DNA from: a virus
IMG/VR virus record: IMGVR_UViG_3300042888_002402
DNA: 64,000 nucleotides
Direction: 5' to 3' (one strand)
Shown here: positions 4,876 through 32,199 of the stretch, piece after piece
Numbering within the stretch: position 1 is the first letter of the stretch
Layout: every line of letters starts with the position of its first letter
Program-made: the position numbers and the translations under genes
Notes under the pieces: generated by a model
Told to the model about the DNA's origin: nothing
Seen by the model: only the letters and a program-made list of their open reading frames with translations
Databases searched by the model: none

Positions 4876-5421
4876 TTACTCCTTATGTTTTTTTAAAAAA
4901 TTATCGTAAGTTTTTTGTCTACGTACTACTACATCTTTATAATGATTTTTAGACCAATAAGTGTAGTAGTCTGTGGTTAACAGATACTTATGACCTTGTA
5001 ATACTGGGTCTAGTTGGTTAAGAAATACTGCAAAATAGTTTCCTTGATTAAACAGTCCAGGATAGAGGCTTTGAGTATTAACTGCCGCGCCCGACTGAAT
5101 AAAGTAGCCCTGTGACATAATTTCTTGATTCAATTTATCAATCATTTTTGTAAGTCCAAGTGTCCAACAAGCCCTAGGAGGCATAATCATAATACAAATG
5201 TCATGGTCTGGACCAGCTATGGTTTCTGTTACCGTTGACTGTATAAATTCTTTGATACTACCAGATTCGTATACTTTAACTGCCACTGTTCCTTTGAGTC
5301 TAGCGGCCTTAGCAAATGGGCACACTGGAAATTTGTAGTCGTAGAATTTATGCTCAACTTCAATGTAGTTTTTTAACCATTCCCAAATGTCGTGTTCAAT
5401 TTGTTTAGTTAGTTCCGTCAT
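4876..5421 (-). CDS. Hypothetical protein with a DUF1415-like CPFA motif
   Basis: W....IE.......PVCPFAK motif; AGGA SD before ATG 5421; AT-rich. Confidence 0.45.
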   Translation of the reverse strand: MTELTKQIEHDIWEWLKNYIEVEHKFYDYKFPVCPFAKAARLKGTVAVKVYESGSIKEFIQSTVTETIAGPDHDICIMIMPPRACWTLGLTKMIDKLNQEIMSQGYFIQSGAAVNTQSLYPGLFNQGNYFAVFLNQLDPVLQGHKYLLTTDYYTYWSKNHYKDVVVRRQKTYDNFLKKHKE

Positions 5422-6100
5422 TGATATTCCTAAAAACATACATTGTCAACCCACCGTTTAACGTATTAAATATATTTGTCACATTAACACAACGATTATG
5501 CAAAGATGGGTAAACAGTTAATAATTTGTAACCTTGCCAGGCCTGTAAAAACTTGCCGTGTGTAAATGTAGTCTCAAACGGATTACATTCTTGATCTAGT
5601 TGTAATCGGCGATTGTGATAATTAGTCCGTAAAATTCTCTGAACAATTTTTCCAACTGTGTTATAGATACTTACAATTATAACACCGTTGTCTGCCAACA
5701 GCAATTTTATTTTTTCAATGGCATGTGACCAGTCCGGCACATGTGTAAGAAAACTTTGAGCAATGATAACATCATATTTTTTCTCTGTGTTAAAAATAAA
5801 AAAGTTTTCTTTAACAAACTCAACATTGTCAATTGAGTAGTTGCTGGCAATGTCTCTGGCAATGTCTACTCCTGCGGAAAAATCAATGCCAGTAAATTTG
5901 CTTTGATAGTTTAAAGCAAGAGAGTTAGTTATAAATCCAGTGCCGCACCCGACATCCAGGATACGTTGCCCGTGATCTATGTATTGGTCAATCAAGCTGA
6001 TATATTTGTTATTAGTTGCTTTACCTGTGCCCAAGAGTTCATAGCGACCCGGAAAAGGGTTTGTGTCATAAAACTGCTGTATTGATTGCTCTAGATTCAT
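5405..6100 (-). CDS. Class I SAM-dependent methyltransferase
   Basis: FYDTNPFP, ILDVGCGTG, GIDFS, YDVII, L.H.PD, G.I.VS.Y. Confidence 0.85.
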   Translation of the reverse strand: MNLEQSIQQFYDTNPFPGRYELLGTGKATNNKYISLIDQYIDHGQRILDVGCGTGFITNSLALNYQSKFTGIDFSAGVDIARDIASNYSIDNVEFVKENFFIFNTEKKYDVIIAQSFLTHVPDWSHAIEKIKLLLADNGVIIVSIYNTVGKIVQRILRTNYHNRRLQLDQECNPFETTFTHGKFLQAWQGYKLLTVYPSLHNRCVNVTNIFNTLNGGLTMYVFRNINDGTN

Positions 6101-7005
6101 CGGTAAATGTAAGGATCTTGATCCTTAAGCAATCGTGAACGCTTTTTCTCTTGAAAAAAATCTGCTATTCTCTGTAGCCAAACAGCAACCAGGCTAGGTT
6201 CCGCCTCAAGAAACTGATTACTAATAGACCGCGCCCATTGTTCAGATCCTTCAACTGTTAAGTGATTATTGTCAGGGAGTAGTAGACCTCTTTCAAAGCC
6301 ATACTCAAATGGTGTTCGGGCAATATAATTTCTCCAATTTATTCTGCCAAACAATCTATGCTCCTTAGGTAGCCTGCCAAAACTTTTATATCCCTTACCA
6401 AATGGATTTTTGTCAAAGGTAAATCGATATGGAATTTTGTGGTGGTCTAAAAAATCGCAACAAGAAACAACATGATTAAGTGTTAGTTCTTCGTGATAAG
6501 CACGATTGTTCATATACTGTATCATGGCAAAGTTTTGTATCCTGCCTTCAACGGACAAAGGATTATACCAAAGCAGATCAGCATTATAACATTCTTGTTG
6601 TATATCAATCGGCAGATTTATAAAATCATCTACTGTTTCGATATTAGGCCAACTTTCAGCACGAATATTTTTATAGCTGTCACACAGTTCAGTAAACTTG
6701 TTTCCGTCAGAAAACCAGTATCCAACATTGTTGATTACGCCATAATATTTTTGTTGTTCGAATAACGACTTTGTGGTGTCAGTAAGAGGCAATTGAAGAT
6801 CACCGAACGATAAATTGCTCCATACAATAACAACAAAGTCTGGCTGGTCAGATAAATCAATGGTGTTTACAACCGAATCAGATATAAATTTATTACCAGC
6901 GCCGCTTCGAGCTAGATTAATAACATCATGCTCGGGGAAAATTTGTTTGATCCAGTTTTGGCCTTCGACATAACTGCCGCCAGTTATTAAAATCTTTTTA
7001 GACAT
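6097..7005 (-). CDS. SGNH/GDSL-like acyl hydrolase/transferase carrying a SWP..LP..IQQEC module
   Basis: ILITGGSY (block I), NLARSGAGN (block II), DNNHL (block V). Confidence 0.55.
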   Translation of the reverse strand: MSKKILITGGSYVEGQNWIKQIFPEHDVINLARSGAGNKFISDSVVNTIDLSDQPDFVVIVWSNLSFGDLQLPLTDTTKSLFEQQKYYGVINNVGYWFSDGNKFTELCDSYKNIRAESWPNIETVDDFINLPIDIQQECYNADLLWYNPLSVEGRIQNFAMIQYMNNRAYHEELTLNHVVSCCDFLDHHKIPYRFTFDKNPFGKGYKSFGRLPKEHRLFGRINWRNYIARTPFEYGFERGLLLPDNNHLTVEGSEQWARSISNQFLEAEPSLVAVWLQRIADFFQEKKRSRLLKDQDPYIYR

Positions 7006-8063
7006 TACTCTTCGGCGGGCTCTTCTTCAGTACTTACTGTTTCTTTCTGATTAGCAAAATCAGACATTACTTTGTCTAAACATTCATCATCATTGCGTTC
7101 CCATCCCTTGCGGAACTTCTTGATAATTTCACCATCACTGGTAGTAAACACAAGACTGTTGCCTTCTTTCTTGAGCAGACCTTTTTTCTCAATTAAATCA
7201 GTCAAGCCAGAATACGGACTCATTCCGGTTTCATAAGGAATTTTAACCTGTACGCCTTCAAATGGTTTAGCGTAGCGTGTTTTCATTACCTTACATGCGG
7301 CACGAATACCCATGACATCAGTAATTTTGTTGCCATCCTCATCTTCTTTGAGCTTGAGTTTTTTCATAGCAACAACAATTGAGCTTGCATAAACGAACCC
7401 TTGTCCACCGCTGATTTTGTCATCTGGATCAAACATGTCTTGACTAGCATATGTGTGATTGGTACAAACCAGCCCTACATTATAACTACCAAACATGTTT
7501 ACACAGTTACGAACTAGACTGGTCAGTGCTTTGGGTTTACGACCCATGTCGCCTTTCATATCTCCAGCGTCAAATTGATTAACGTCGGTCGGAGTAAGCA
7601 ACATGCCCAATGAGTCAATTACAAACAACACCTTAGGGCGTTCGCCATCTGGTAATGATTTATAATCACTCATGAATGTAGAAATAGTCTTTGCTACATC
7701 ATCAATCATGGCCATTGATAGTTTTAACAACTTGCTATCACCAGTGTCAACACCAAGATCATGCAACCATTTTTCATCTAGTGCATTCTCCGAGTCAATC
7801 AGCACCACATAAATGCCTTGCTCCTGTGCGTTCTTAATGATGTTGCCGGAACAGATGTAGCTTTTGCCCGCGCCAGATTCACCAGCAAAAACCGTGACCT
7901 TGCCCAGTGGCACCCCTCTGTTAAAGTCTCCAGAGATTAGATAGTTCAATGCATAGTTGCCTGTTGAGATCCAATCTGTAGGATCATTGAAACCAATTGA
8001 CAGTCCGTCAATGCTTTTTGTAATTTCCTTGCGGAATTTTGATACGTCGAATGGTTTTCCCAT
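7005..8063 (-). CDS. uvsX: RecA-like recombinase UvsX
   Basis: Walker A GESGAGKS, IDSENALD, FVIDSLG, TNHTY, ISGGQGF; no intein. Confidence 0.95.
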   Translation of the reverse strand: MGKPFDVSKFRKEITKSIDGLSIGFNDPTDWISTGNYALNYLISGDFNRGVPLGKVTVFAGESGAGKSYICSGNIIKNAQEQGIYVVLIDSENALDEKWLHDLGVDTGDSKLLKLSMAMIDDVAKTISTFMSDYKSLPDGERPKVLFVIDSLGMLLTPTDVNQFDAGDMKGDMGRKPKALTSLVRNCVNMFGSYNVGLVCTNHTYASQDMFDPDDKISGGQGFVYASSIVVAMKKLKLKEDEDGNKITDVMGIRAACKVMKTRYAKPFEGVQVKIPYETGMSPYSGLTDLIEKKGLLKKEGNSLVFTTSDGEIIKKFRKGWERNDDECLDKVMSDFANQKETVSTEEEPAEE

Positions 8064-8259: not shown

Positions 8260-9213
8260 TTAGTCATGTTTTTTTAAAACCTCCAAGTATCGGTTACTAA
8301 AGTAATGATCATAATTATACTCAATTGTATCTTGTTCTATTAGATATAAATCATGCCATTCAGCAGGTGTTAAATGACTAAATTTTGAAATCATAGTTAT
8401 TAGCTCAACCAACCGTTCAACAGGATTTTTTATACTGTCAAATCTGTAGTCAAACAGTTTAGTGTATCGTTTAAATCCATGATATTTTTCTACATGAGCA
8501 TGCCATCCAGGTTGGGCGTATGCCAAAAACAGGCCACGTGTTACTATACTGTATAAGAATTTTTCTGTTACAAATGGATAATAGCTAGTTGCCGCAGTTT
8601 CGCTAACAATATGCAAAAAACTTTCAGTTAATTTTGATTCTAAATTATGAATATTTTGATTGTGTTCAAATCTTACATGTCCAAAACTATTTGTAGATTG
8701 AAAAAATTCTTCAGAATGTTCATTAACAAAAAATTTAAGGTAAAAGTTATCTTGGTCGTTAACATAATCAGTTATGTGACCATTTAACATATTTTTTGTG
8801 TAAGAAAAATTTTTACTACAATAATTGTTATTAAAATATCCAAATTTTGACAATATAGAAACTAATAATTTTCTACTTACGTGTGGCGACCCGTTAAAAC
8901 TGCAAATAAAATTTTTGTAGTTTAATGTTGGATGGATGGTGTAATTAACAAAATGTTTGAAATTTAATCTATTTTGAAATTCTGCGTAATTTTTGATGTT
9001 AAGAGTATTGTAGTGTGATAATTTCAAAAAATCAATTTGATATTGTGTGTAAATTTGATTTTTACATTTATTTTTGAGAAATACGTCTAGTAATCGATTT
9101 TTAAAGTTTGCATCAAATCCGCCAAGATGATCAAATAGTATCAAGGGTTCGTCTTGAGTAAACACAAGAGTTCCATTTACTAAGTCCAGATAGTGCTGTG
9201 TTGTAATTTCCAT
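8260..9213 (-). CDS. GT10-like (fucosyltransferase-motif) putative glycosyltransferase
   Basis: SFLHIVSET...FVTEKF...GFKRY...DY.FDSI...RL, similar to the GT10 ENS...TEK motif; paralog of 28639..29883; AT-rich. Confidence 0.45.
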   Translation of the reverse strand: MEITTQHYLDLVNGTLVFTQDEPLILFDHLGGFDANFKNRLLDVFLKNKCKNQIYTQYQIDFLKLSHYNTLNIKNYAEFQNRLNFKHFVNYTIHPTLNYKNFICSFNGSPHVSRKLLVSILSKFGYFNNNYCSKNFSYTKNMLNGHITDYVNDQDNFYLKFFVNEHSEEFFQSTNSFGHVRFEHNQNIHNLESKLTESFLHIVSETAATSYYPFVTEKFLYSIVTRGLFLAYAQPGWHAHVEKYHGFKRYTKLFDYRFDSIKNPVERLVELITMISKFSHLTPAEWHDLYLIEQDTIEYNYDHYFSNRYLEVLKKHD

Positions 9214-9214
9214 A

Positions 9215-9943
9215 CTAAATTATAGGCATTAAATAATTATCTACATACCATGCATGTGCATCTGCATCTGGATAGTGGGGATTAAAAAACTTAAATTTTT
9301 GTTCAATTGACAAATTAATAAATCCTCTACAATCAGCATCACGTACAAATTTAGTTAAATTTATTTTGTTGTAAAGGGCAAAATTAAAATCTTTTACACC
9401 ATCGTCGTGATATTGAATAAGATTAGTAATTGGATAAGAATTACACATAATATAATTTGCACCGATACTATCAAGATAATACTGCGCAGATAGTATGGTA
9501 GCCCAAGCTGAATTAACATGCATAGACTGATTATAAAAATATTTATAGTATTGATTTTTGTATCCTCGTGGCACTGCACCATTGATATACCAACCATGTT
9601 GATTGTTATATTGATTATTGTAGTCTACAAATTGTGCCTTGTACCCATCTAACCAACTTGCAAATTCTATATCGTTTTGCAGGTGCGGAACAGCAGAATT
9701 AACATAAAGATCGAGTCTATCAGCTGATGGCCACATTATAATACATAAAGTATCAGGATTATTAACAAAAGAAGTATATAATTTTTGAATAATATATGTG
9801 TATCCAGCTCCTCTTTCTGCAAAATTATAAAGTTTGCAACCGAGTTGGTTACTCAATAAATCAGCCCAGGTATCAATGTAATTGTCTTTGGTCAGACTAC
9901 ACCCGTAGACAAATAAATTTTGATATCTGGGCTGTACTGTCAT
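9215..9943 (-). CDS. SGNH/GDSL-like protein
   Basis: FVYGCSLT, W, NFAERGAG, IIMWP...RLD, HYP....H; AT-rich. Confidence 0.55.
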   Translation of the reverse strand: MTVQPRYQNLFVYGCSLTKDNYIDTWADLLSNQLGCKLYNFAERGAGYTYIIQKLYTSFVNNPDTLCIIMWPSADRLDLYVNSAVPHLQNDIEFASWLDGYKAQFVDYNNQYNNQHGWYINGAVPRGYKNQYYKYFYNQSMHVNSAWATILSAQYYLDSIGANYIMCNSYPITNLIQYHDDGVKDFNFALYNKINLTKFVRDADCRGFINLSIEQKFKFFNPHYPDADAHAWYVDNYLMPII

Positions 9944-9950
9944 TCAATGA

Positions 9951-10937
9951 TTATTGTTTTTGTCTTGCACGAATCATGGCCAAAATGTCTTCGGCTTTCT
10001 GTGCTGGCTTAGCTGCTGCTACTGGTGCAACGGGTGCTGGCACATCATCCTCGTCATCAAAGTTTGATACTACCACAGTTGGTGCTACTGCTGTAATTTC
10101 ATGCACGTCGCCGTGCCCATCAACAGTCAATGCGGGTGCGCCTGCTGGTGCTTGCACACCTGCTGGTCGGAAATACTGACCCCAACGGGTGGTGTCGTAT
10201 GCTTGTCCATCTACTGATGCTTCAAACATTTCTTTGATTACTTTTAACTCAACATCAGTTGGTTTCTTTGGCAAGAATGTTGAAAGATCAAACAGGCCAT
10301 GTTTTTCTATTGCAGCCTGTTCTGCTTCTGTGAGTGCAGATTCTTTACGGGCCCACTTGGAACTGTTGTAGTCAGCAAATCCACCTTTGGCTGTTTTAGT
10401 GATGCGGAAGTCTAGGCCTTTCAACAAGTCTGTTGGCAATTCTTCCAGCTCAGGATCCATCAATGCACCTTTGATCAAGGTAAAAATTTGTGGACCAATG
10501 ATAAATCTACGAATAGGGTTCTCAGGAGTCTTGTCTTCGTTGATGGGATTTTCACGTACAAAACCTTGGAAAATATAACTGCGTTTTTTCCAGTATTTAC
10601 GACCCATGTCTTCAAGACTCTTGTCCTTGAACCATGTGCGAACTTCTGCCAGTACTGGGCACGGATCGCCCCACATTTCAACACAAGGAACTTGTACAAA
10701 TACTTGTTTGGATTCCATTTCTCCTTTGACGCCATTGAATGGCAGTCGAATCATGGCTCGTTCGGCCCAGAAAAATGTGTTTTTTGTGTTTGCATCTGGA
10801 AGGAAGCGTAAGGTAGCTGATTGTCCTTCTTCCATGTTCCAGTGTGGGTAAATTGAATTGTCTCCCCCACCTTGTGATTGAGAACCTTTGTTCTCGCTTG
10901 CTGCCAGTCTTGCTCTAATGTCTGCTAATGATGCCAT
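9951..10937 (-). CDS. gp32: T4 gp32-like single-stranded DNA-binding protein
   Basis: LRFLPD, VPC.EMWGDPCPV, YWKKRSY, G.DFRI.K, GGFADY..S.W; true start MASLADIR at 10937. Confidence 0.9.
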   Translation of the reverse strand: MASLADIRARLAASENKGSQSQGGGDNSIYPHWNMEEGQSATLRFLPDANTKNTFFWAERAMIRLPFNGVKGEMESKQVFVQVPCVEMWGDPCPVLAEVRTWFKDKSLEDMGRKYWKKRSYIFQGFVRENPINEDKTPENPIRRFIIGPQIFTLIKGALMDPELEELPTDLLKGLDFRITKTAKGGFADYNSSKWARKESALTEAEQAAIEKHGLFDLSTFLPKKPTDVELKVIKEMFEASVDGQAYDTTRWGQYFRPAGVQAPAGAPALTVDGHGDVHEITAVAPTVVVSNFDDEDDVPAPVAPVAAAKPAQKAEDILAMIRARQKQ

Positions 10938-10941
10938 ATTA

Positions 10942-10999
10942 TGTTGCCTTTCTAAAGTTTTTAATATGTTGCCTATCAATGATAGTGTTTTTGTTGCCT
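10942..10999 (-). repeat. Three AGGCAACA direct repeats with an exact 25-nt period in the gp32 leader
   Basis: TGTTGCCT on the plus strand at 10942, 10967 and 10992. Confidence 0.85.
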
Positions 11000-11034
11000 G
11001 TGATACCAATAAAAAAGCGTATACACATGTTAGT

Positions 11035-11073
11035 AGTATATACGCTTTGTTTATCAGCGTCAAGAGTATTTAT
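11035..11073 (-). promoter_or_regulatory. Tandem late (TAAATA) and sigma70 (TTGACG-17-TATACT) promoters for gp32
   Basis: -35 at 11058-11063, -10 at 11035-11040, TAAATA at 11068-11073. Confidence 0.7.
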
Positions 11074-13179: not shown

Positions 13180-14745
13180 TTATCGTCTGGCACTGATAAA
13201 GGGCATGGGTGCAATAATAACATCACCGTGATCGCGCATTTGACTGTCCATTTCTGTGTGATATGTTTGTAGCAGCTGCATCATGCGCACTGCCAACAAT
13301 GCAGCCATGACCAAATCGTCAGTTTCTCCGGGTTTGGCAGCGTAACTTACTCCGTGTGCTACAAATGTTTTTAATTCTGAAACTAAAGGTATACTTCTGA
13401 TTTTCATGCGCCCAGATTCTATTAGAGTTTTAAATTTATTACAAGCCGCCAATTTGGGTTTTTGTGTGGTATTAAACCCTTTGCGATATCTGCGTCCAGA
13501 ACTTCCACTGTTAGGATCACTTAGGAAATATCCTTCGATATTTTCCTCGCCGTACTCTGCAATGGAAATCAAGGCTGCTTCCCCAATGGTGTTGTTTTCA
13601 ATACTGTAATATACTTTTTGTGGATCTTTTACAACTTCATTGATGTGCTTGCATATGTCAGCTAGGATTCTAACCTGTTCTGGAATTGGCGTTCTATTGT
13701 GGCGCCACTCACCAATTTGTTCTGTGGTGTTGGCTTCAAATATTTGTATGGCAGCAGGATCACCACCTGTACCCAAACTAGGATCCAGTGCTACAACATA
13801 GATTCGGTCTGCCCGGGGTTTTTGATACCAACGCACTTGTCCAGTACGATATGCAGGCTCAATGCCATATAATTCAATTAGTTTAGTAGGTGCTATCAGA
13901 GTCTCATCATTGATGATAAATTCGCAGTCCATCTCTCGACGGAAACGATCCTCGCCTAGTTGCGCTCGTTGTTCTTCAGCCCACTTTTTGTCGCGATCTG
14001 GATGTTCATTCCAGTAACTACGATATGCTTTGAATCCATTAATACCTACTACTGTAGGATTGCCGTAGGAATCTTCGCAACGATTGGCACCTTTCCACAG
14101 TAGCGCAAATTGATCTTCGTCCGAGTTTGGAGTTGATGTAATAATTGCTTTACCACCAGTGGCCAGTGTGGGCGATATGGACGTCCAGAATTCTTTGGCA
14201 ATACCTGGTCGCACAAACGCAAACTCATCTGCGTATAGCAGTGATATACTCATACCACGACCGGTATTTTCTGTAGTTGTTGCGCTTACTATACGACTTC
14301 CATTTTCAAAATCCAAGTTACCTTTGTTGTAACTGGTACACCCTGCACGAATATGATCCGGGCACAGTTCATATGCATAACGTATGCGTTGCATTATCTC
14401 TTGTGATCCTGTGTACTTGTGCGCAGCAATTAAAATTGTACTGTCTGGCACAAACATAGCATACCACAACAAATACCCTGCAGCCGATGTTGACTTGCCG
14501 GTTTGTCGCGGCATCATTGATATCGAAAATCTATGATTATGATAGGTTTCAATCAATCGTTCTTGGTACTCAAACGGATGATACAACATTTTTCCTTTGG
14601 TGGGATGTTGTATGTGAAAATAATTGTCCATAAAATACATAGGCCCTGTGACAGGATCTGCACATTTTATAAATTCTTCTAACTGTGTCTCATTGTAACT
14701 ATGCCGCTTATGAGGTGCTTTGACTAGTACTGCTTCTGCGGCCAT
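13180..14745 (-). CDS. gp17: Terminase large subunit
   Basis: PRQTGKST Walker A, LLYADEFAF Walker B, TSTPN, REMDCEF, nuclease VALDPSLG and DDLVMA; GGAG SD before ATG 14745. Confidence 0.95.
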   Translation of the reverse strand: MAAEAVLVKAPHKRHSYNETQLEEFIKCADPVTGPMYFMDNYFHIQHPTKGKMLYHPFEYQERLIETYHNHRFSISMMPRQTGKSTSAAGYLLWYAMFVPDSTILIAAHKYTGSQEIMQRIRYAYELCPDHIRAGCTSYNKGNLDFENGSRIVSATTTENTGRGMSISLLYADEFAFVRPGIAKEFWTSISPTLATGGKAIITSTPNSDEDQFALLWKGANRCEDSYGNPTVVGINGFKAYRSYWNEHPDRDKKWAEEQRAQLGEDRFRREMDCEFIINDETLIAPTKLIELYGIEPAYRTGQVRWYQKPRADRIYVVALDPSLGTGGDPAAIQIFEANTTEQIGEWRHNRTPIPEQVRILADICKHINEVVKDPQKVYYSIENNTIGEAALISIAEYGEENIEGYFLSDPNSGSSGRRYRKGFNTTQKPKLAACNKFKTLIESGRMKIRSIPLVSELKTFVAHGVSYAAKPGETDDLVMAALLAVRMMQLLQTYHTEMDSQMRDHGDVIIAPMPFISARR

Positions 14746-15893
14746 AGCAGCTCTCCAAATTCTGGCCATAGTTTGGCAAATTTTCCAACGGCATCTGGAT
14801 GGTATTTGTTTTCAATATCATCAACAAATGTTTTTAATTTATCTAACTGTGTTGAATCAGGCAGATCTTTGGTATTAAAGGTTGCAAGGGCAGTGTCAAA
14901 AAAATCTTGATCATGTTGGTCTACATCGAAATTATCGTACATCAGTTGAATTTCTTTTGCGACCAACATGGCAATTTCTTTTCCGTAATTTCTAGGATCT
15001 AATTCTATAGGACCGTTAAGATTTTGCCATTTAATCACCAATCCGCGATCCTGAGCAAATTTTTTAAATTTACACAAATTAGTTGCGTTGTATAAATTAT
15101 AAACTGCGTGTATGCCGCCCCAGTGCCCATTATTTTTTATCAATGACTGCACAAGATCAAGATTGTACAACATCAAATTCCAATCTGCGCCGTATCTTAC
15201 GTATTCAAATTGCTCACCAATGTTGTCAAAACTGAGTGACCAACTGACACGTTGTCGCTGGCTAAGTTTTTTAAATATTCGATTATTTTCAAGTGGATTG
15301 CTGAGATTTGTAATTATTGTTACAATACAATCTGGTGGGATGACATCGAGTAGTCGGTCATTCTCTGGCAGTAACAAAGGTTCGCCGCCAACCAAGGCCA
15401 CTTCTTTTATTTTATCGTAGTGTTTTTCAATAAAATTACATACATCGACATAATAATGTCTTAGTTTTGTGTTATTGTTGATAGAGATTTTTTTTATCCC
15501 TGCCCATTTTGAACTTTCAATTGGACCACAATAGTTACAACTTAAATTGCAGGTGTTATTCCATCGCACATCAACAATTACCGGATAATCATATTCAAGA
15601 CTGGCCTGTGACGTATCAAAATTTTCATTTGCCCTATTATGCCATGCTCGCTCGCTCTCGCTGCCGTGTTTCTCTCTTGTTACACAACCTGCACAATATC
15701 GAGGATGCGGAATGCCTTGTTTTAGACTTTCACGTATTTCTTTAAGTTTATCTCCATTGAGAATTTCTTCTATGCCTTGAGAATTAAGATTGCCCAACAT
15801 GTTGGGATTACCGGCACAGCAAGTTTTAACATTACCGGTAGTATTGATATGCAGGCCACGCCAGGGAGCGGCACAATAGAATTTATCAGTCAT
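14724..15893 (-). CDS. Radical SAM protein with an N-terminal SPASM/twitch-like domain
   Basis: CAAPW...GNVKTCC...CAGC followed by CNLSCNYC, GGEPLL, ITN. Confidence 0.85.
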   Translation of the reverse strand: MTDKFYCAAPWRGLHINTTGNVKTCCAGNPNMLGNLNSQGIEEILNGDKLKEIRESLKQGIPHPRYCAGCVTREKHGSESERAWHNRANENFDTSQASLEYDYPVIVDVRWNNTCNLSCNYCGPIESSKWAGIKKISINNNTKLRHYYVDVCNFIEKHYDKIKEVALVGGEPLLLPENDRLLDVIPPDCIVTIITNLSNPLENNRIFKKLSQRQRVSWSLSFDNIGEQFEYVRYGADWNLMLYNLDLVQSLIKNNGHWGGIHAVYNLYNATNLCKFKKFAQDRGLVIKWQNLNGPIELDPRNYGKEIAMLVAKEIQLMYDNFDVDQHDQDFFDTALATFNTKDLPDSTQLDKLKTFVDDIENKYHPDAVGKFAKLWPEFGELLWPQKQY

Positions 15894-24264: not shown

Positions 24265-27200
24265 TTAGGCTGTTGTTTGTGCAGCAATGGTTCCTGTGTT
24301 TTGTATGCGCAATGGTATGTAGATAAACTCAATTGCTTTGACTGGTTCAATTGCAATATCCACGTATAACTCATTGCGGTCAATTGTAGCAGGAGTATTG
24401 TTAGAAAGATCGCACACAACCAAGTAGTCATAGATACCACGTTTGTTCACAAGATCAATCATCAAACTGGTCACTGAGTTAGTAATTTGTGCACGAGTGA
24501 TTGAATCATTGGGTTCAAACAAGTAATTGTTACCAATTAGTTGCAATCTGCCGCGCAAATAAGCTACTAAACGTGCTACGTTAATGCGGTCTAATGCAGT
24601 TGTAGTTGCTTGCAGTGTGAGATTACCAAAGTTAGTAATACCAACGCCTGGTATAAATGTAATTGGATTAATATCATTTTGATATAGCGTATCGCGCAGT
24701 CCTTGATTTATAGTATTGCGTGTATACTCACCAGTTGTGGCATCAATGAATCCTAGGCTAAACGCATTGTCTACAACTCCACGTCGTGTGCCAGCAGGTG
24801 CCAACCACGGATAGCTCACACTATCACTACGGATAATTGTGCGTACCATCATGTGACTAGGTGGTTGCACCACTGAATTTCCACTAAGGTCAGTTGTTTG
24901 GCAACTAGGATAAAACGTTGCCGCATATGAGTCATTGGTTGTTAATCCGTCGCCTGCAGGAATTCCAAGTCCATTGTTGTTTGTGGCCCATGTAACAACA
25001 TCGGTTGGACTTAGTCGCAAAGGAGTATCAACCACCACAAATCCAGTGTCATTACGATCATTGTTAAGTGCAACCATGTTTGATGCCAGCTCTGGATACT
25101 GAGGGCATGCAATCAAATTGAACACATTTTGATTTTCACGTATTGTGGTATTTGAATCAATGCCGGCTTTGAGTGCTTGTACAATCATTGCTCGTTGTGC
25201 TTGGCGTCCCATATAAGGGGATCCATCTATACGCAACCCACTAGCAGTCAGCCAAGTGCTGGTCACTGTTGGTAATGTGTCAGGTGGTGGATATGAAGTG
25301 GCATTGAAATAATTGGCTTCAAATTGTTTTACGTTGTATCCGGATCTGCGTGTGTTAAACAACAATATGCCCTGTGGATACAGTGCAGGGTCAGGTGCAT
25401 CTAGATCCAAATAATCACTGGTTAACAAACTAACAATGCTAGGAATTGGATCAGTGACTGGATCTGTGGTTCCGTTTGGCGCCCATCGTGCATCAGCAAA
25501 TAACACACCGTTTTCTGTTGTTTGATCAGCATTACTGAGTGTAACCCATTGATCTTGACCGTCAACATCTTGCCAACGATTAATCAATGGATAATTTTCT
25601 AAATCACTGGTATCGATCCACAAATCACCATATACCAATGGACTAGCAGATGAATTGTTTTGGGTTGTCGGTGCAGTAGGGCTAAACTGTGGCCCAGTGG
25701 CATTGGTTTGACTTAGGTCATATCCACGCACGTCTGGATTGGCATTTTGATATCCTACCCACACACCATTATCACTGATCATGATATCAGCCTGATCTAT
25801 GGCAGAATAATACCATAGTTGACCAGATGCTGGATCTTGATTTGGTGCACTGTTACTAGCAGTGTAAGTGAAGGTTGTAGATCCTACCCAGTTGCTGAGT
25901 ATTAAACTATTAGTTGTAACATCCAGAGATCTAACACCAACACAAGCAGTCGAAAACCCTGCAGTGGCCACTGGGGTTCCAGTAACATTGGCAAGAATGA
26001 TGTCACCTCCGGTACTGTGAGTAAACACCAATGCTCCACTGCTGTTAATTGATGCACTAACATATGGTACAGCTGCGGCACTGACTGCGCTGACAAAATC
26101 TGTAGCGGTAGTACCTAGTAGTGTGACAAGAGCCGGTGGTGATGTTAAAGAAGCAGTGCCAGGCTGTGTGGCCCTTATTGAAAAACTATTACCAGAAACA
26201 AACGGACCAGGTGTTGTATCGGTACCAGTAATTATTGTAGGGCCTGTGGCGTATCTTTCAAGTATTAAAAATCCAGATGTGCCGCCGTTGCCAGATAATT
26301 CTGTATAATAAGGATTAACTTCTGCATAGGTACTGCCAGCTGGAATATTTGTGCCGCCGCCAGATGGATCTAGTGCATATATTGCAGCGGCATCATTGTA
26401 GTACACAGGACATGCTTGTTGTACAAATGTTCCCAGTGTTGAATTGTAACGTTTCATAACAATGTTAGTACCCAAATTTACATTGTTGGTTTTTTGCCAT
26501 ACAGATCCAGTTGGTTCTGGTTGCGGTGCAGTGGATCTCCAGTTTGGTGCAGTGTAATTTGGGCTGGCAAGATACGCAGGTGCAAAATATGTAGTTGCAA
26601 CAATGCCCAAATTGGCCAACACTGTGCCTGTACTAGCAGTGATGTTAACTATACCTGTGCCTTCGGTACTGCCATCGCTTGTGGCTGTGCTGTTGGCATA
26701 CAATTCTAATTTTCCACCAATATGAGCAGAATAAACACCTGTTATAGCTGCAGTGTTGATAGCATTAGACAAACCTTCAACTGTGTTATTAGGGCTAACA
26801 GGAACAGTGACAACTGTGCCATTGATAGTTATTGTATTACCAGCAGTCAATGAGGTAGGCGCTAGTGTGCCTTGCACAGTTGGCCATGCAGTTTTCCAAT
26901 CATCACTGCCAATCAACACCCAGGTGTTATTGAAATCACTGAGTTCAGTTGCACTGGTTTGAGCACTGGTAGGACCGCCACGTTTGTAGTAGCCAGGCAA
27001 TGTTGTGCTGGTTGCGGTAACTGCATATTGACCAATGCTGCCAAAACTTTGTAATGGCACAGTGGAACCGGTTTCAAGATTAGCAGTATCAGTAATAACC
27101 AATGGTACTTGATTGGTAAATGCACCAGTAACCTGATTCCATTCAAAAATACCCCATGCAGTGTTTGCAGTATCTAGCCAGTAAGTATTATTAGGAGGAC

Positions 27201-27585
27201 TACCAACTGGTCTAGTTAATGTAGCAGTCAACTGTGATAGATCAATGTCTACACGTTGTACGTAGCATCTATTAGATATACCAAGGGCCGAATACGCAGC
27301 CAATAAGCCGTATTCGTTAAGTTCGTAGCCATTGATTGGTGTTCCTGCTGCAGTGTTATAAAAGAACGGAACCCCAAAAGTAGATAACAAATCTCGTTGA
27401 CTTGTAATCAAGAATGTTTGATTAACAGTTGCTGCAGTTGTGCCTACTGCTATGCCAGTTCCAGCACCTGATATCTTATTTGACGCAGTGGCCAACAAAA
27501 TATAAGGAACAGAATTGGTTGCAGCTGGTATGTAATTACTTTGATCAATTACTGTAACTTGTACGCCGGGGGATAATAGAGCCAT
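24265..27585 (-). CDS. gp18: Contractile tail sheath protein, enlarged (1106 aa)
   Basis: MALLSPGVQV; C-terminal PWLAPAG.RRG, RDTLY...INPI, LDRINVARL, FEPND, CD.SNNTP..IDRNEL.VDIAIEPVKAIEFI. Confidence 0.95.
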   Translation of the reverse strand: MALLSPGVQVTVIDQSNYIPAATNSVPYILLATASNKISGAGTGIAVGTTAATVNQTFLITSQRDLLSTFGVPFFYNTAAGTPINGYELNEYGLLAAYSALGISNRCYVQRVDIDLSQLTATLTRPVGSPPNNTYWLDTANTAWGIFEWNQVTGAFTNQVPLVITDTANLETGSTVPLQSFGSIGQYAVTATSTTLPGYYKRGGPTSAQTSATELSDFNNTWVLIGSDDWKTAWPTVQGTLAPTSLTAGNTITINGTVVTVPVSPNNTVEGLSNAINTAAITGVYSAHIGGKLELYANSTATSDGSTEGTGIVNITASTGTVLANLGIVATTYFAPAYLASPNYTAPNWRSTAPQPEPTGSVWQKTNNVNLGTNIVMKRYNSTLGTFVQQACPVYYNDAAAIYALDPSGGGTNIPAGSTYAEVNPYYTELSGNGGTSGFLILERYATGPTIITGTDTTPGPFVSGNSFSIRATQPGTASLTSPPALVTLLGTTATDFVSAVSAAAVPYVSASINSSGALVFTHSTGGDIILANVTGTPVATAGFSTACVGVRSLDVTTNSLILSNWVGSTTFTYTASNSAPNQDPASGQLWYYSAIDQADIMISDNGVWVGYQNANPDVRGYDLSQTNATGPQFSPTAPTTQNNSSASPLVYGDLWIDTSDLENYPLINRWQDVDGQDQWVTLSNADQTTENGVLFADARWAPNGTTDPVTDPIPSIVSLLTSDYLDLDAPDPALYPQGILLFNTRRSGYNVKQFEANYFNATSYPPPDTLPTVTSTWLTASGLRIDGSPYMGRQAQRAMIVQALKAGIDSNTTIRENQNVFNLIACPQYPELASNMVALNNDRNDTGFVVVDTPLRLSPTDVVTWATNNNGLGIPAGDGLTTNDSYAATFYPSCQTTDLSGNSVVQPPSHMMVRTIIRSDSVSYPWLAPAGTRRGVVDNAFSLGFIDATTGEYTRNTINQGLRDTLYQNDINPITFIPGVGITNFGNLTLQATTTALDRINVARLVAYLRGRLQLIGNNYLFEPNDSITRAQITNSVTSLMIDLVNKRGIYDYLVVCDLSNNTPATIDRNELYVDIAIEPVKAIEFIYIPLRIQNTGTIAAQTTA

Positions 27586-27681
27586 GACAAAATCCTTTTT
27601 TCAATATAGATATTTAGTAAAGATTGAAAAAAGAGCAGGTGTAAGAGTCCCTACTAGTAGGTTTTGCGTATAAATATCAGC

Positions 27682-28026
27682 ATGAGACCCATCTGTCAGA
27701 CATGTAATCAAAGACCCAGAGCCGTTGCGTACCATCGAAATGAGCAGGTACAATATCGTAAAATGTGTGAGTATTGTATTAAACGAAAACGGCGGGTTCC
27801 TGCTCCGACGGCTAGATGGAAATTAGCAGGGTATAAGAAAAAATCCACATGTGATCGGTGTGGATTTAGATCCAAATACACTGGTCAATTATTGGTGTAT
27901 CATATAGATGGAAATTTAAATAATAATACGTTGAGAAATTTAAAAACTATATGTTTAAACTGCACCGTTGACATTAAAAAAGCAGATCTACCTTGGACAC
28001 CTGGTGATCTTGAACCAGATTATTAA
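27682..28026 (+). CDS. Small zinc-finger/HNH endonuclease-like protein
   Basis: CxxC pairs, YHIDGNLNNN...NLKTICLNC; TATAAATA 5 nt before ATG 27682. Confidence 0.75.
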   Translation: MRPICQTCNQRPRAVAYHRNEQVQYRKMCEYCIKRKRRVPAPTARWKLAGYKKKSTCDRCGFRSKYTGQLLVYHIDGNLNNNTLRNLKTICLNCTVDIKKADLPWTPGDLEPDY

Positions 28027-28638: not shown

Positions 28639-29883
28639 TTAATTTTTAGTTTTATAATTAAAAACATTAATGCACTCTTGTTGAATCCAGTCTGGCAGAT
28701 TAACAAAATCATCTTCATTTAGGCAGTCTGGCCAACTGTCATCTTTTATTCTCTTATACCAATTGCACCATTGTGACTGGCTGGCACTATATGTCATTTC
28801 GTCTATTAATCTTATAACTTCTTCTATTTTACAATCTAAGGCATATTTGTCAATTAATTGTAGTAATCTATTAGAATTGTCTTGAGCCAATTCTAGCAGT
28901 CTTTGATAATTATACTCAACATCTTTTTCAATGTCATCTACATGATTATGCATATTGTCAATCCAATATTTGGTGTTGATCACAATTGCATCAAGCCTTT
29001 TTTCAGAAGACGCAATGTTATCGTAGTGCATTTTTGTGTAATTTTCAAATGTTTTAAATCCCATTTTTTTAAGTTTTTTTAATGTTCCTTTACTTGATGC
29101 CATTAAAAATGGGCGACGATTAATAATTGACAACCAAGTTTTTTCAGTTATCCACGGTGTAGATTTTTTAAAATTTGTTTCACTGATTACTTGAAACAAA
29201 CTGTTTTTATATAACTCAAGCTGATATGGAATGCCGCGGGGCACTGTCATACCAAATTTATGTAACATAGTTTCCATAGTTATACTATCTGGATTATTAC
29301 TATGGGTTAATAAAAATAAATTGTATTCATCATCCGAAAGCTCTTTTAAGAATTTTCGAGACCGTTGACGTGAATTATCATCGTTTACAAATAATGACCA
29401 AGTTGCATACGGCAACAAATTACGTTGTTTAAACTTATGAAGAAGACGAATTCTGTGTATTTTATATGGTTTTCCGGTCAAGAACAAAAATTTTTTATTA
29501 CTAGGATCCCAATTTAGTGCGACAGCAGATTCGTTATTAACTATTAATCTATAATAGGTCATTAATAAGAAAAAATCAACAAAAACTATTTCATCTACTA
29601 ATGATTTATCAATGATAGTTACTTGCTTTTGGTACCAAGAATTAATTATTAATAAAATTTTTGTTGTAGGATAATATTGTTTAATTAAATTAATTAATTT
29701 TATAAAATTTTCCTGCCAGGATTTTGTAGAGCTTGCTTCCCATAACTTAGTGAGCACCACACAATGATTAGGATATTTTATTAATGTGGCATGGACAGTA
29801 TTAAATAAATCTGTTACAGCCGTGAGATTTTTATCATATTGTAGCCTATCTATGTTACAAATAAAATGATTTTTAAAAATCAT
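28639..29883 (-). CDS. GT10-like putative glycosyltransferase with a C-terminal SWP..LP..IQQEC module
   Basis: FLFLTGKP...HR, SLFQVISET, WITEKTW, PFL, GFKTF; very AT-rich. Confidence 0.45.
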   Translation of the reverse strand: MIFKNHFICNIDRLQYDKNLTAVTDLFNTVHATLIKYPNHCVVLTKLWEASSTKSWQENFIKLINLIKQYYPTTKILLIINSWYQKQVTIIDKSLVDEIVFVDFFLLMTYYRLIVNNESAVALNWDPSNKKFLFLTGKPYKIHRIRLLHKFKQRNLLPYATWSLFVNDDNSRQRSRKFLKELSDDEYNLFLLTHSNNPDSITMETMLHKFGMTVPRGIPYQLELYKNSLFQVISETNFKKSTPWITEKTWLSIINRRPFLMASSKGTLKKLKKMGFKTFENYTKMHYDNIASSEKRLDAIVINTKYWIDNMHNHVDDIEKDVEYNYQRLLELAQDNSNRLLQLIDKYALDCKIEEVIRLIDEMTYSASQSQWCNWYKRIKDDSWPDCLNEDDFVNLPDWIQQECINVFNYKTKN

Positions 29884-31242: not shown

Positions 31243-32199
31243 TTAAAATACTGTGGTAGCTCCGCGTTTTTTACTTACTGCAAATAATTTGTTGTTTACA
31301 AACTTGGTTGGGCAAAATTTGCATTGCGGTATAACATCATCTATATGTGACAGAAAGTCTACACCGTTTTGATCAACTTCTTCTATGGTCAACGGCCTAT
31401 AACTGTTTAGTAATACTCTGTCTTCATCTGAAATATCCAACGCATGTTGTTGATCAAACTCAGGCATTAGCCCCACTGGCCCACACTTGTGCAATTTTCC
31501 ACGAATAAAGTGATAATTTTTGTACATGGCCATGCCACATACATCATGTGCTGCTTGAGGCAAGCTGTTGTGTAAGGTCAGTTTTCCTTGTGCATTTCTA
31601 TGTATATTTGCATTGTAAAAAGAATCGTACACCCAAACGTGAACATGCACTCCATTGCTGTCTTCAAACGCATAATCGGCCCCCCAAGTGGCAGATCCGC
31701 CAGAGCTGTTTAACGCATCTTTGCCAACCCATTTTTTCACTGGTCCTTGTAAGAACTTGTGTATCTCTTCAAAATATTTTTCTAATTCATTGGTATTGTG
31801 CACACTGACACCTATCCAATTGCCGCCTTGGTGTCTGTACTCGGCAATTGTATCATACAATCCAGCAACCTGGTTAAGCCTGGTTCCGTTTGTTAATAAC
31901 TGAACACGCTTGTTCCATAATCTGTTTAGCCCTCGAATCCAATCACAAACACTTGGATTCATCAACGGTTCGCCGCCCAACACAGTGATTTTTCGCAGGC
32001 GTATTTTTTTAGCCCATGCTTCATATATAGATTCATAATCTTTCCAAAGTTGATGCCCTGTAAAATTATGATTGTTATATCGGTTACAATCAGTGCAGGC
32101 AATGTTACATATGTTGGTTATGTAAACTTCAACATTGGGTACGTACAGTCGTGGATCCCAAGGTGTTTCATCGGGCCACTGTACTTTGGGATCAATCAT
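31243..32199 (-). CDS. Radical SAM protein
   Basis: ITNICNIACTDCNR, LGGEPLMNP, LTNG, C-terminal GKLHKC and CKFCP. Confidence 0.85.
   Translation of the reverse strand: MIDPKVQWPDETPWDPRLYVPNVEVYITNICNIACTDCNRYNNHNFTGHQLWKDYESIYEAWAKKIRLRKITVLGGEPLMNPSVCDWIRGLNRLWNKRVQLLTNGTRLNQVAGLYDTIAEYRHQGGNWIGVSVHNTNELEKYFEEIHKFLQGPVKKWVGKDALNSSGGSATWGADYAFEDSNGVHVHVWVYDSFYNANIHRNAQGKLTLHNSLPQAAHDVCGMAMYKNYHFIRGKLHKCGPVGLMPEFDQQHALDISDEDRVLLNSYRPLTIEEVDQNGVDFLSHIDDVIPQCKFCPTKFVNNKLFAVSKKRGATTVF

Follow-up and report, generated by a model that had tools for sequence, protein, structure and literature searches.

A 29-residue match between two otherwise dissimilar proteins of the window (the whole 64,000-nt stretch of viral DNA analysed here) was found to be the core of a 44-residue module, and the analysis of its relatives showed that it is a genuine domain, autonomous, restricted to viruses and as yet without a name, which has been repeatedly fused to unrelated tailoring enzymes. 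The best explanation, to which we give roughly an even chance, is that this undescribed domain of about 44 residues serves as a non-catalytic recognition or adaptor module on tailoring enzymes. Both copies in the window and their host genes are encoded on the reverse strand:

6097..7005, reverse strand: host gene A, 302-aa SGNH-like protein; the module lies between putative blocks III and V
6568..6699, reverse strand: module copy A, 44 aa, residues 103-146 of the 302-aa protein; predicted three-helix mini-domain
28639..29883, reverse strand: host gene B, 414-aa GT10-like protein, between dexA-like exonuclease and dNMP-kinase-like genes
28651..28782, reverse strand: module copy B, 44 aa, residues 368-411, C-terminus of the 414-aa protein

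The preliminary description of this DNA had reported an ungapped 29-residue match between these two proteins, and counting confirmed 17/29 identities with zero gaps between the core of copy A (YKNIRAESWPNIETVDDFINLPIDIQQEC, reverse strand of 6589-6675, residues 111-139 of the 302-aa ORF) and that of copy B (YKRIKDDSWPDCLNEDDFVNLPDWIQQEC, reverse strand of 28672-28758, residues 376-404 of the 414-aa ORF). BLASTP of the 302-aa versus the 414-aa protein extended the match to 19/38 (E 2e-9) and aligned no other part of them, in agreement with the earlier statement that the hosts are otherwise dissimilar. The full extent of the module, about 44 residues, was taken from the IMG/VR relatives of the 414-aa protein. 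When scored against a profile of 147 modules, copy B reached 80.5 bits (E 1e-24); it is close to the consensus and lines up with the C-terminal modules of the homologues L001, L003 and L013. Copy A is divergent, with Ile for the first Cys and DLL for the terminal FGY, and scored 54 bits (E 2e-16). A relaxed profile scan of all window ORFs detected exactly two copies, the next-best ORF reaching 4 bits (E 0.7).

A profile search for further homologues had been suggested along with the original observation, and homologues turned out to be plentiful. A nine-sequence module profile was compared with 1.84 billion cluster representatives (clusters at 50% identity), which gave 796 protein clusters at E≤1e-3, 112 of which also passed E≤1e-10. 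The alignment of 147 copies yielded the consensus W..FY..IKD.SWPDC..E.DF..LP..IQ.ECI.VFGY, in which Tyr and Trp never vary and P, C, F, L-P, I and E almost never do. The module had not been recognised as a named domain, and it indeed does not appear to be one, as none of nine copies had a significant Pfam-A match; the only match at E≤10 was a chance one of a single copy (U62_UL91, E 0.15). No family model spanned the module region of the host proteins, and the source names of module proteins were nearly all "hypothetical protein" or generic enzyme labels. Literature searches returned no description of the module, only general accounts of cassettes with glycosyltransferase and radical SAM genes that lie in the hypervariable regions of pelagimyophage and cyanomyophage genomes (PMC7029224).

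The module was almost confined to uncultivated aquatic T4-like and jumbo myoviruses. Pattern scans gave 153 confirmed loci in IMG/VR versus 2 doubtful matches in 185,579 prokaryote species genomes, a contrast that is approximate, since both scans were pattern-limited and used different peptide patterns, but very large. Of the two prokaryote matches, one came from a contig of 1.6 kb assigned to a Saccharibacteria MAG, and the other was partial and weak. In the 50,697 phage records of GenBank no true match was obtained by megablast and tblastn with the region, both hosts and three module queries. The sources of the samples included metagenomes of stratified lakes and one or more Tara Oceans records. 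Module copies numbered about 1-3 per genome, and five jumbo-phage records (one complete, one about 91% complete and three 60-64% fragments) carried 1-2 each. Short matches of 39-128 aa came from very short contigs or from the ends of contigs, and none of the IMG/VR loci showed a complete ORF consisting of the module alone. Among sequences labelled as prokaryotic, the 1658-bp contig L011 (CAITDW010000242.1, Saccharibacteria bin) carries a GT10-like gene with the module, and NDH68059.1, a DUF6492 protein with the module that is labelled as coming from a gammaproteobacterial MAG, belongs to a 90% cluster that is also found on a 308-kb contig; both sources are probably viral contigs that were mis-binned into MAGs.

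The module had been proposed to be common to unrelated enzymes rather than to characterise one family, and it was found in at least 12 host families. With the module masked, BLAST divided the best 150 matches into 11 multi-member host families plus singletons, a count that is raised by the N-terminal-twitch radical SAM family and by the SGNH-like family of the window. Within the same best 150 matches the module was N-terminal, internal, C-terminal or present in tandem. The host proteins matched the Pfam or NCBIfam models Radical_SAM, MTS, Methyltransf_24, DUF6492 and NF033640 and, more weakly, ADI, GDSL, GT10 and FkbM. The radical SAM hosts form two distinct families, one of which is NF033640, the N-terminal-twitch type, where the module precedes the twitch domain; in the gene at L030 5992-7374, which scored 226.7 bits against a cutoff of 170, the module takes up residues 1-43 and the matched region residues 63-450. 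Class I methyltransferase hosts were of the MTS and Methyltransf_24/CmcI-like types, with faint FkbM matches, and a family of hosts of about 380 aa gave weak matches of the arginine-deiminase/amidinotransferase type (phrog_25854). The module was shown to have been fused at least 12 separate times to tailoring enzymes.

Several proteins (P0005, P0006, P0055 and P0106) contain tandem module copies, and at L076, L078, L079, L081 and L086 both genes of a neighbouring pair carry the module. At some loci two or three module-bearing genes adjoin, notably a radical SAM gene followed by one for the protein of about 380 aa. Two radical SAM genes of the window belong to the same enzyme groups and are free of the module:

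14724..15893, reverse strand: N-terminal-twitch radical SAM, 389 aa, NF033640 223.7 bits (above the cutoff of 170); no module
31243..32199, reverse strand: radical SAM, 318 aa, radical SAM PHROG and NCBIfam matches; no module

Homologues of the former in jumbo phages (the gene at L030 5992-7374 and others) carry the module N-terminally at residues 1-43, and the latter clusters with internal-module radical SAMs of L076, L078, L080 and similar loci. On viral contigs of 90-215 kb we also observed tandem arrays of 5-8 NF033640 paralogs (L030 559-10957, L034 884-10448, L058 3-11928 and L067 1922-8573), in each of which a single paralog has the module, at its N-terminus.

Domain mobility is best documented in the GT10-like family, which has a second member in the window:

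8260..9213, reverse strand: GT10-like paralog, 317 aa, BLASTP E 1e-8 to host gene B over the half with the TEK motif; no module

In this family the module is either appended C-terminally (window, L001, L003 and L013a), placed as a block of about 64 residues between two conserved motifs (L008, L009 and L013b) or absent (L004, L006, L007 and the in-window paralog), and all three states were found in one conserved genomic slot. The 317-aa protein had been described as a paralog without the module, and both parts of this statement hold, as it is related to the 414-aa protein and gave no profile match. The slot between the dexA-like and dNMP-kinase-like genes is conserved in at least 10 locus groups. 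The GT10 assignment itself is a lead, drawn from a motif and weak matches. The motif ISET...PWITEKTW is essentially invariant across the family; a Pfam scan of the 414-aa protein gave no PF00852 match, and one relative matched PF00852 faintly (E 0.037, 14 bits versus a cutoff of 23.9). Feature scores of 0.77-0.79 against GT10 clusters in the atlas are likewise a lead. At L013 1823-4382 two GT10-like paralogs are adjacent, one with a C-terminal module and one with a diverged internal module.

In host gene A the module sits mid-protein, as described before, and the neighbouring gene encodes a methyltransferase:

5405..6100, reverse strand: class I SAM methyltransferase, 231 aa, Pfam Methyltransf_31 E 1.5e-20; without module

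The 302-aa protein had no Pfam, PHROG or NCBIfam match, and its single-sequence AF2 model was unusable (pLDDT 37). It may be called SGNH-like on account of motifs and weak leads: S11 (GGSY), G37 (SGAGN), N64 (WSN) and D245-x-x-H248 follow the SGNH block pattern. The family is small, with eight homologues at 67-94% identity and a distant one in L090, and the module occupies the identical internal position in all 10 members. The Ser/Gly/Asp-x-x-His residues occur in SGNH block order throughout the family; S11, G37, D245 and H248 are invariant in 10 homologues, and N64 is present but variable. The protein ends in a basic-acidic tail, QEKKRSRLLKDQDPYIYR (6097-6150, reverse strand, residues about 285-302), which is almost invariant in nine close homologues and absent from the distant L090 homologue. 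The preliminary description had further regarded the 242-aa ORF at 9215-9943 as a module-less paralog of the 302-aa protein. This ORF does lack the module, but the paralogy did not stand: BLASTP gave E 0.44, and hhalign gave a probability of 5% over only the N-terminal 64 columns. PHROGs contained no match for the 302-aa and 414-aa proteins or for the neighbours 8260-9213 and 9215-9943.

The start of the methyltransferase gene overlaps the end of host gene A; the two are operon partners, and this pair is kept in L092-L094. The operon of UvsX, SGNH-like protein with module, SAM methyltransferase and a 189-aa protein (window 4876-7005, reverse strand) is conserved on lake metagenome contigs; it recurs at L092 6933-10139, L093 and L094, and its last protein, of about 187 aa across these loci, is DUF6875-DUF1415-like. 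A homologue of this protein of about 187 aa was also seen two genes upstream of an amidinotransferase-like, module-bearing gene in L054, L069, L077 and L084.

A fold prediction, which the preliminary description had likewise suggested, gave a confident model. With AF2 the 44 residues of copy A alone (147-row alignment) were predicted to form three helices at positions 3-12, 23-27 and 31-39 (pLDDT 83.6). Helix 1 (W..FY..I) would be followed by a K/R-D-x-S-W-P-D-C loop and a short helix 2 (E.DF), and a Leu-Pro turn with helix 3 (IQ.ECI.VFGY) would complete the module. The conserved aromatic and aliphatic spacing would fit one buried face on each predicted helix. In some copies I, L or V stands in place of one Cys or the other, the two changing independently. 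This speaks against a catalytic or metal-dependent role and led to the rejection of a metal or disulfide site; the two Cys are therefore core residues rather than an obligate pair of that kind. Together with the aromatic residues they most likely form a tiny hydrophobic core. As a rule the module is acidic (median net charge -4), and it would probably make contact through this acidic surface.

Fold searches with the module model returned nothing above background in Foldseek against PDB, VIA-align and the ESM atlas, the best scores being E 7 in Foldseek, Z 3.3 in VIA and TM 0.6 in the ESM atlas (fragments of unrelated proteins). The villin headpiece is similar in size, in three-helix topology and in its aromatic core (1vii, Z 2.8, 34 residues, rmsd 2.1); however, this Z is far below meaningful and tied with dozens of unrelated helical fragments, and the headpiece has no sequence relationship to the module. 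A different likeness concerns the UBMs of DNA polymerase iota and Rev1, which are about 30 residues long, also consist of a helix, a Leu-Pro turn and a helix and have the string F..LP..IQ.E around the invariant Leu-Pro in common with the module; UBM1 and UBM2 of DNA polymerase iota were the only PDB sequence matches of the profile. Helix 2, the Leu-Pro turn and helix 3 might accordingly be read as UBM-like, with a beta-grasp or ubiquitin-like protein of phage or host origin as binding partner, a reading we consider highly improbable, as the matches span 16 residues only and are non-significant (E 0.13-0.2), no Pfam UBM match was found at E≤10, and the module has an additional N-terminal helix and the W-P-D-C loop, neither of which is present in UBMs. 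No ubiquitin partner is known in phages.

The conservation of the module was compared with that of its hosts. Across four host families the module had an information content of 2.5-3.4 bits per column, above the mean of the remaining protein and about as high as the best 44-column catalytic stretch of the hosts, in a comparison that is biased because the matches were picked by module score. Mean module identity was 41% between and 48% within host families, and for 90 of 116 modules the nearest neighbour came from the same host family (34 expected). The pattern in these sequences indicates that the fusions were limited in number, date far back and are subject to a shared constraint. That unrelated hosts retain the same 44 residues points to a constraint independent of the host enzyme.

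The same numbers bear on the possibility that the module is a structural accessory without a shared external target, which diverse enzymes took up as a compact, robust fold and which would serve as a small cap, promote solubility or stability, or mediate self-association (dimerisation). Most of its conserved residues are hydrophobic or aromatic core positions, the tendency of modules to track the host family speaks for old, stably inherited fusions, the copy number is 1-2 per genome, and tandem duplication could represent an intramolecular pseudo-dimer. On the other hand, paralogs and orthologues of the same enzymes exist without the module, which is thus not needed for their folds, and the identity of about 41% across unrelated hosts includes surface acidic positions, K/R14 and E37 (columns of alignment A2). 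We therefore regard a purely structural role as rather unlikely. A homodimer prediction with two module copies (78-row alignment) scored 0.01 against a mark of 0.42 and is evidence neither way.

The genes around the module copies place the window in a T4-like myovirus, of which it represents a part: UvsX is encoded at 7005-8063, gp32 at 9951-11063 and the tail sheath protein at 24265-27585, all on the reverse strand. The UvsX of the window is closest (65-70% identity) to that of the cultured jumbo phages Vibrio phage 2.275.O, CBB, GAP32, Atu_ph07 and Phosso, which have genomes of 350-490 kb, and cyanophage UvsX is more distant (<60%). Since its UvsX is nearer to that of jumbo phages, the window probably comes from a jumbo T4-like lake phage and not from a cyanomyovirus. 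In the locus groups the module genes are neighboured by the T4 core genes for gp32, UvsX, UvsW, gp46, baseplate protein and tail sheath; no partner gene was universally co-located across 59 locus groups. The slots of module genes, between gp32 and uvsX, between dexA and gene 1, beside uvsW and between a baseplate gene and gp46, show that module cassettes occupy known plastic gaps of T4-like genomes. In particular, the gap between gp32 and uvsX accommodates cassettes, being occupied in at least 10 locus groups by genes with differing enzyme bodies (278-416 aa) that end in the module directly upstream of uvsX (L017, L022, L025, L029, L031, L037, L042, L043, L044, L056 and L070). In the window this gap (8260-9943) contains two module-less genes, and the module-bearing gene lies just downstream of uvsX. 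Genes for HNH or SegE-type endonucleases often adjoin module genes and flank two slots in many related phages, and such homing-endonuclease-type genes may drive the exchange of cassettes.

This arrangement, with differing bodies whose module-coding ends face uvsX and with endonuclease genes nearby, could also suggest that the module is retained chiefly as a DNA-level homology patch for the recombinational swap of enzyme cassettes and has no function as a protein. The codon positions largely refuted such a patch, to which we give hardly any chance. Copies A and B share only 55% of their nucleotides (48% at third codon positions), with a longest in-register exact run of 10 nt, so that conservation acts at the protein level. 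It follows amino-acid properties, the module is also N-terminal and internal in other contexts, and it is predicted to fold confidently alone. A DNA repeat or in-frame mobile element (RPE-like) was ruled out by the same codon-position identities.

A non-catalytic recognition or adaptor role is what we infer for the module. A binding role fits better than a catalytic or purely structural one, since paralogs dispense with the module and any position in the chain is tolerated; it is further favoured by the tandem copies and by the retention of the same residues, surface ones included, across unrelated hosts. Tandem copies and adjacent pairs of module-bearing genes are typical of binding modules. 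The module would tether the attached enzyme to a lineage-specific macromolecular partner or acceptor, such as a phage protein or polymer that is being modified, and tethering of this kind would explain why scattered single enzymes carry the module and most of their paralogs do not. A general tag for a whole pathway is excluded by the low copy number and by the presence of the module on one of 5-8 radical SAM paralogs; a low copy number would better fit a tag for the few enzymes that need a macromolecular acceptor or partner.

A docking or address function, as first proposed for the 29-residue match, is plausible. More specifically, the module might be a virus-specific address domain that docks chosen tailoring enzymes on one lineage-specific macromolecular hub, the substrate modified in place then being a macromolecule and not a soluble precursor; this we put forward tentatively and hold to be less probable than the recognition or adaptor role in general. 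Candidate hubs would be a virion or fibre glycoprotein, the replisome or the DNA being modified, or a packaging scaffold, and the arrangement would amount to a phage counterpart of RRE or dockerin logic with a receptor protein or polymer yet to be discovered.

The RRE (PqqD-like) is a small non-catalytic domain at either end of unrelated tailoring enzymes, among them radical SAM enzymes and methyltransferases. Through it these enzymes recognise a common substrate, and within a cluster it is present on some enzymes only. The module is alike in being fused to many unrelated tailoring enzymes and to some enzymes only. However, the RRE is a winged helix-turn-helix of about 85-90 residues that includes a three-stranded sheet, whereas the module has 44 residues in three helices and no strands in the AF2 model and has no Pfam match; nor is a peptide substrate evident. 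Dockerins, PKS/NRPS docking domains and carbohydrate-binding modules, which place an enzyme on a scaffold or polymer, are likewise small and portable, occur on diverse enzymes and are sometimes found in tandem. The module differs from them in having no Ca-binding loop pattern and no sequence or fold match and in occurring in 1-3 copies per genome, and no cohesin-like partner or glycan ligand was found for it. We conclude that the module represents a new domain family, of a general type that is well known, the portable accessory module.

Tailoring enzymes of the sugar and radical SAM types, with targets so far unexplained, are encoded in large sets by aquatic T4-like and jumbo phages. The module marks a specific subset of these enzymes in at least 12 families and so provides an experimental handle on the targets, as its binder likely is, or adjoins, what the tailoring enzymes modify. 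At minimum, these 796 clusters define a new and well-supported family of domains, which has no counterpart in Pfam or in any of the cultured phage genomes searched and is suited to curation and to structural and interaction studies.

Two endonuclease-type genes were recorded in addition. In the window, an HNH-like ORF of 120 aa (27664-28026) is encoded on the forward strand, opposite to its neighbours, between the tail sheath and dNMP kinase genes. At L054 a SegE GIY-YIG gene (7610-8041, reverse strand; Pfam E 2.7e-33) lies beside a slot for a module gene.
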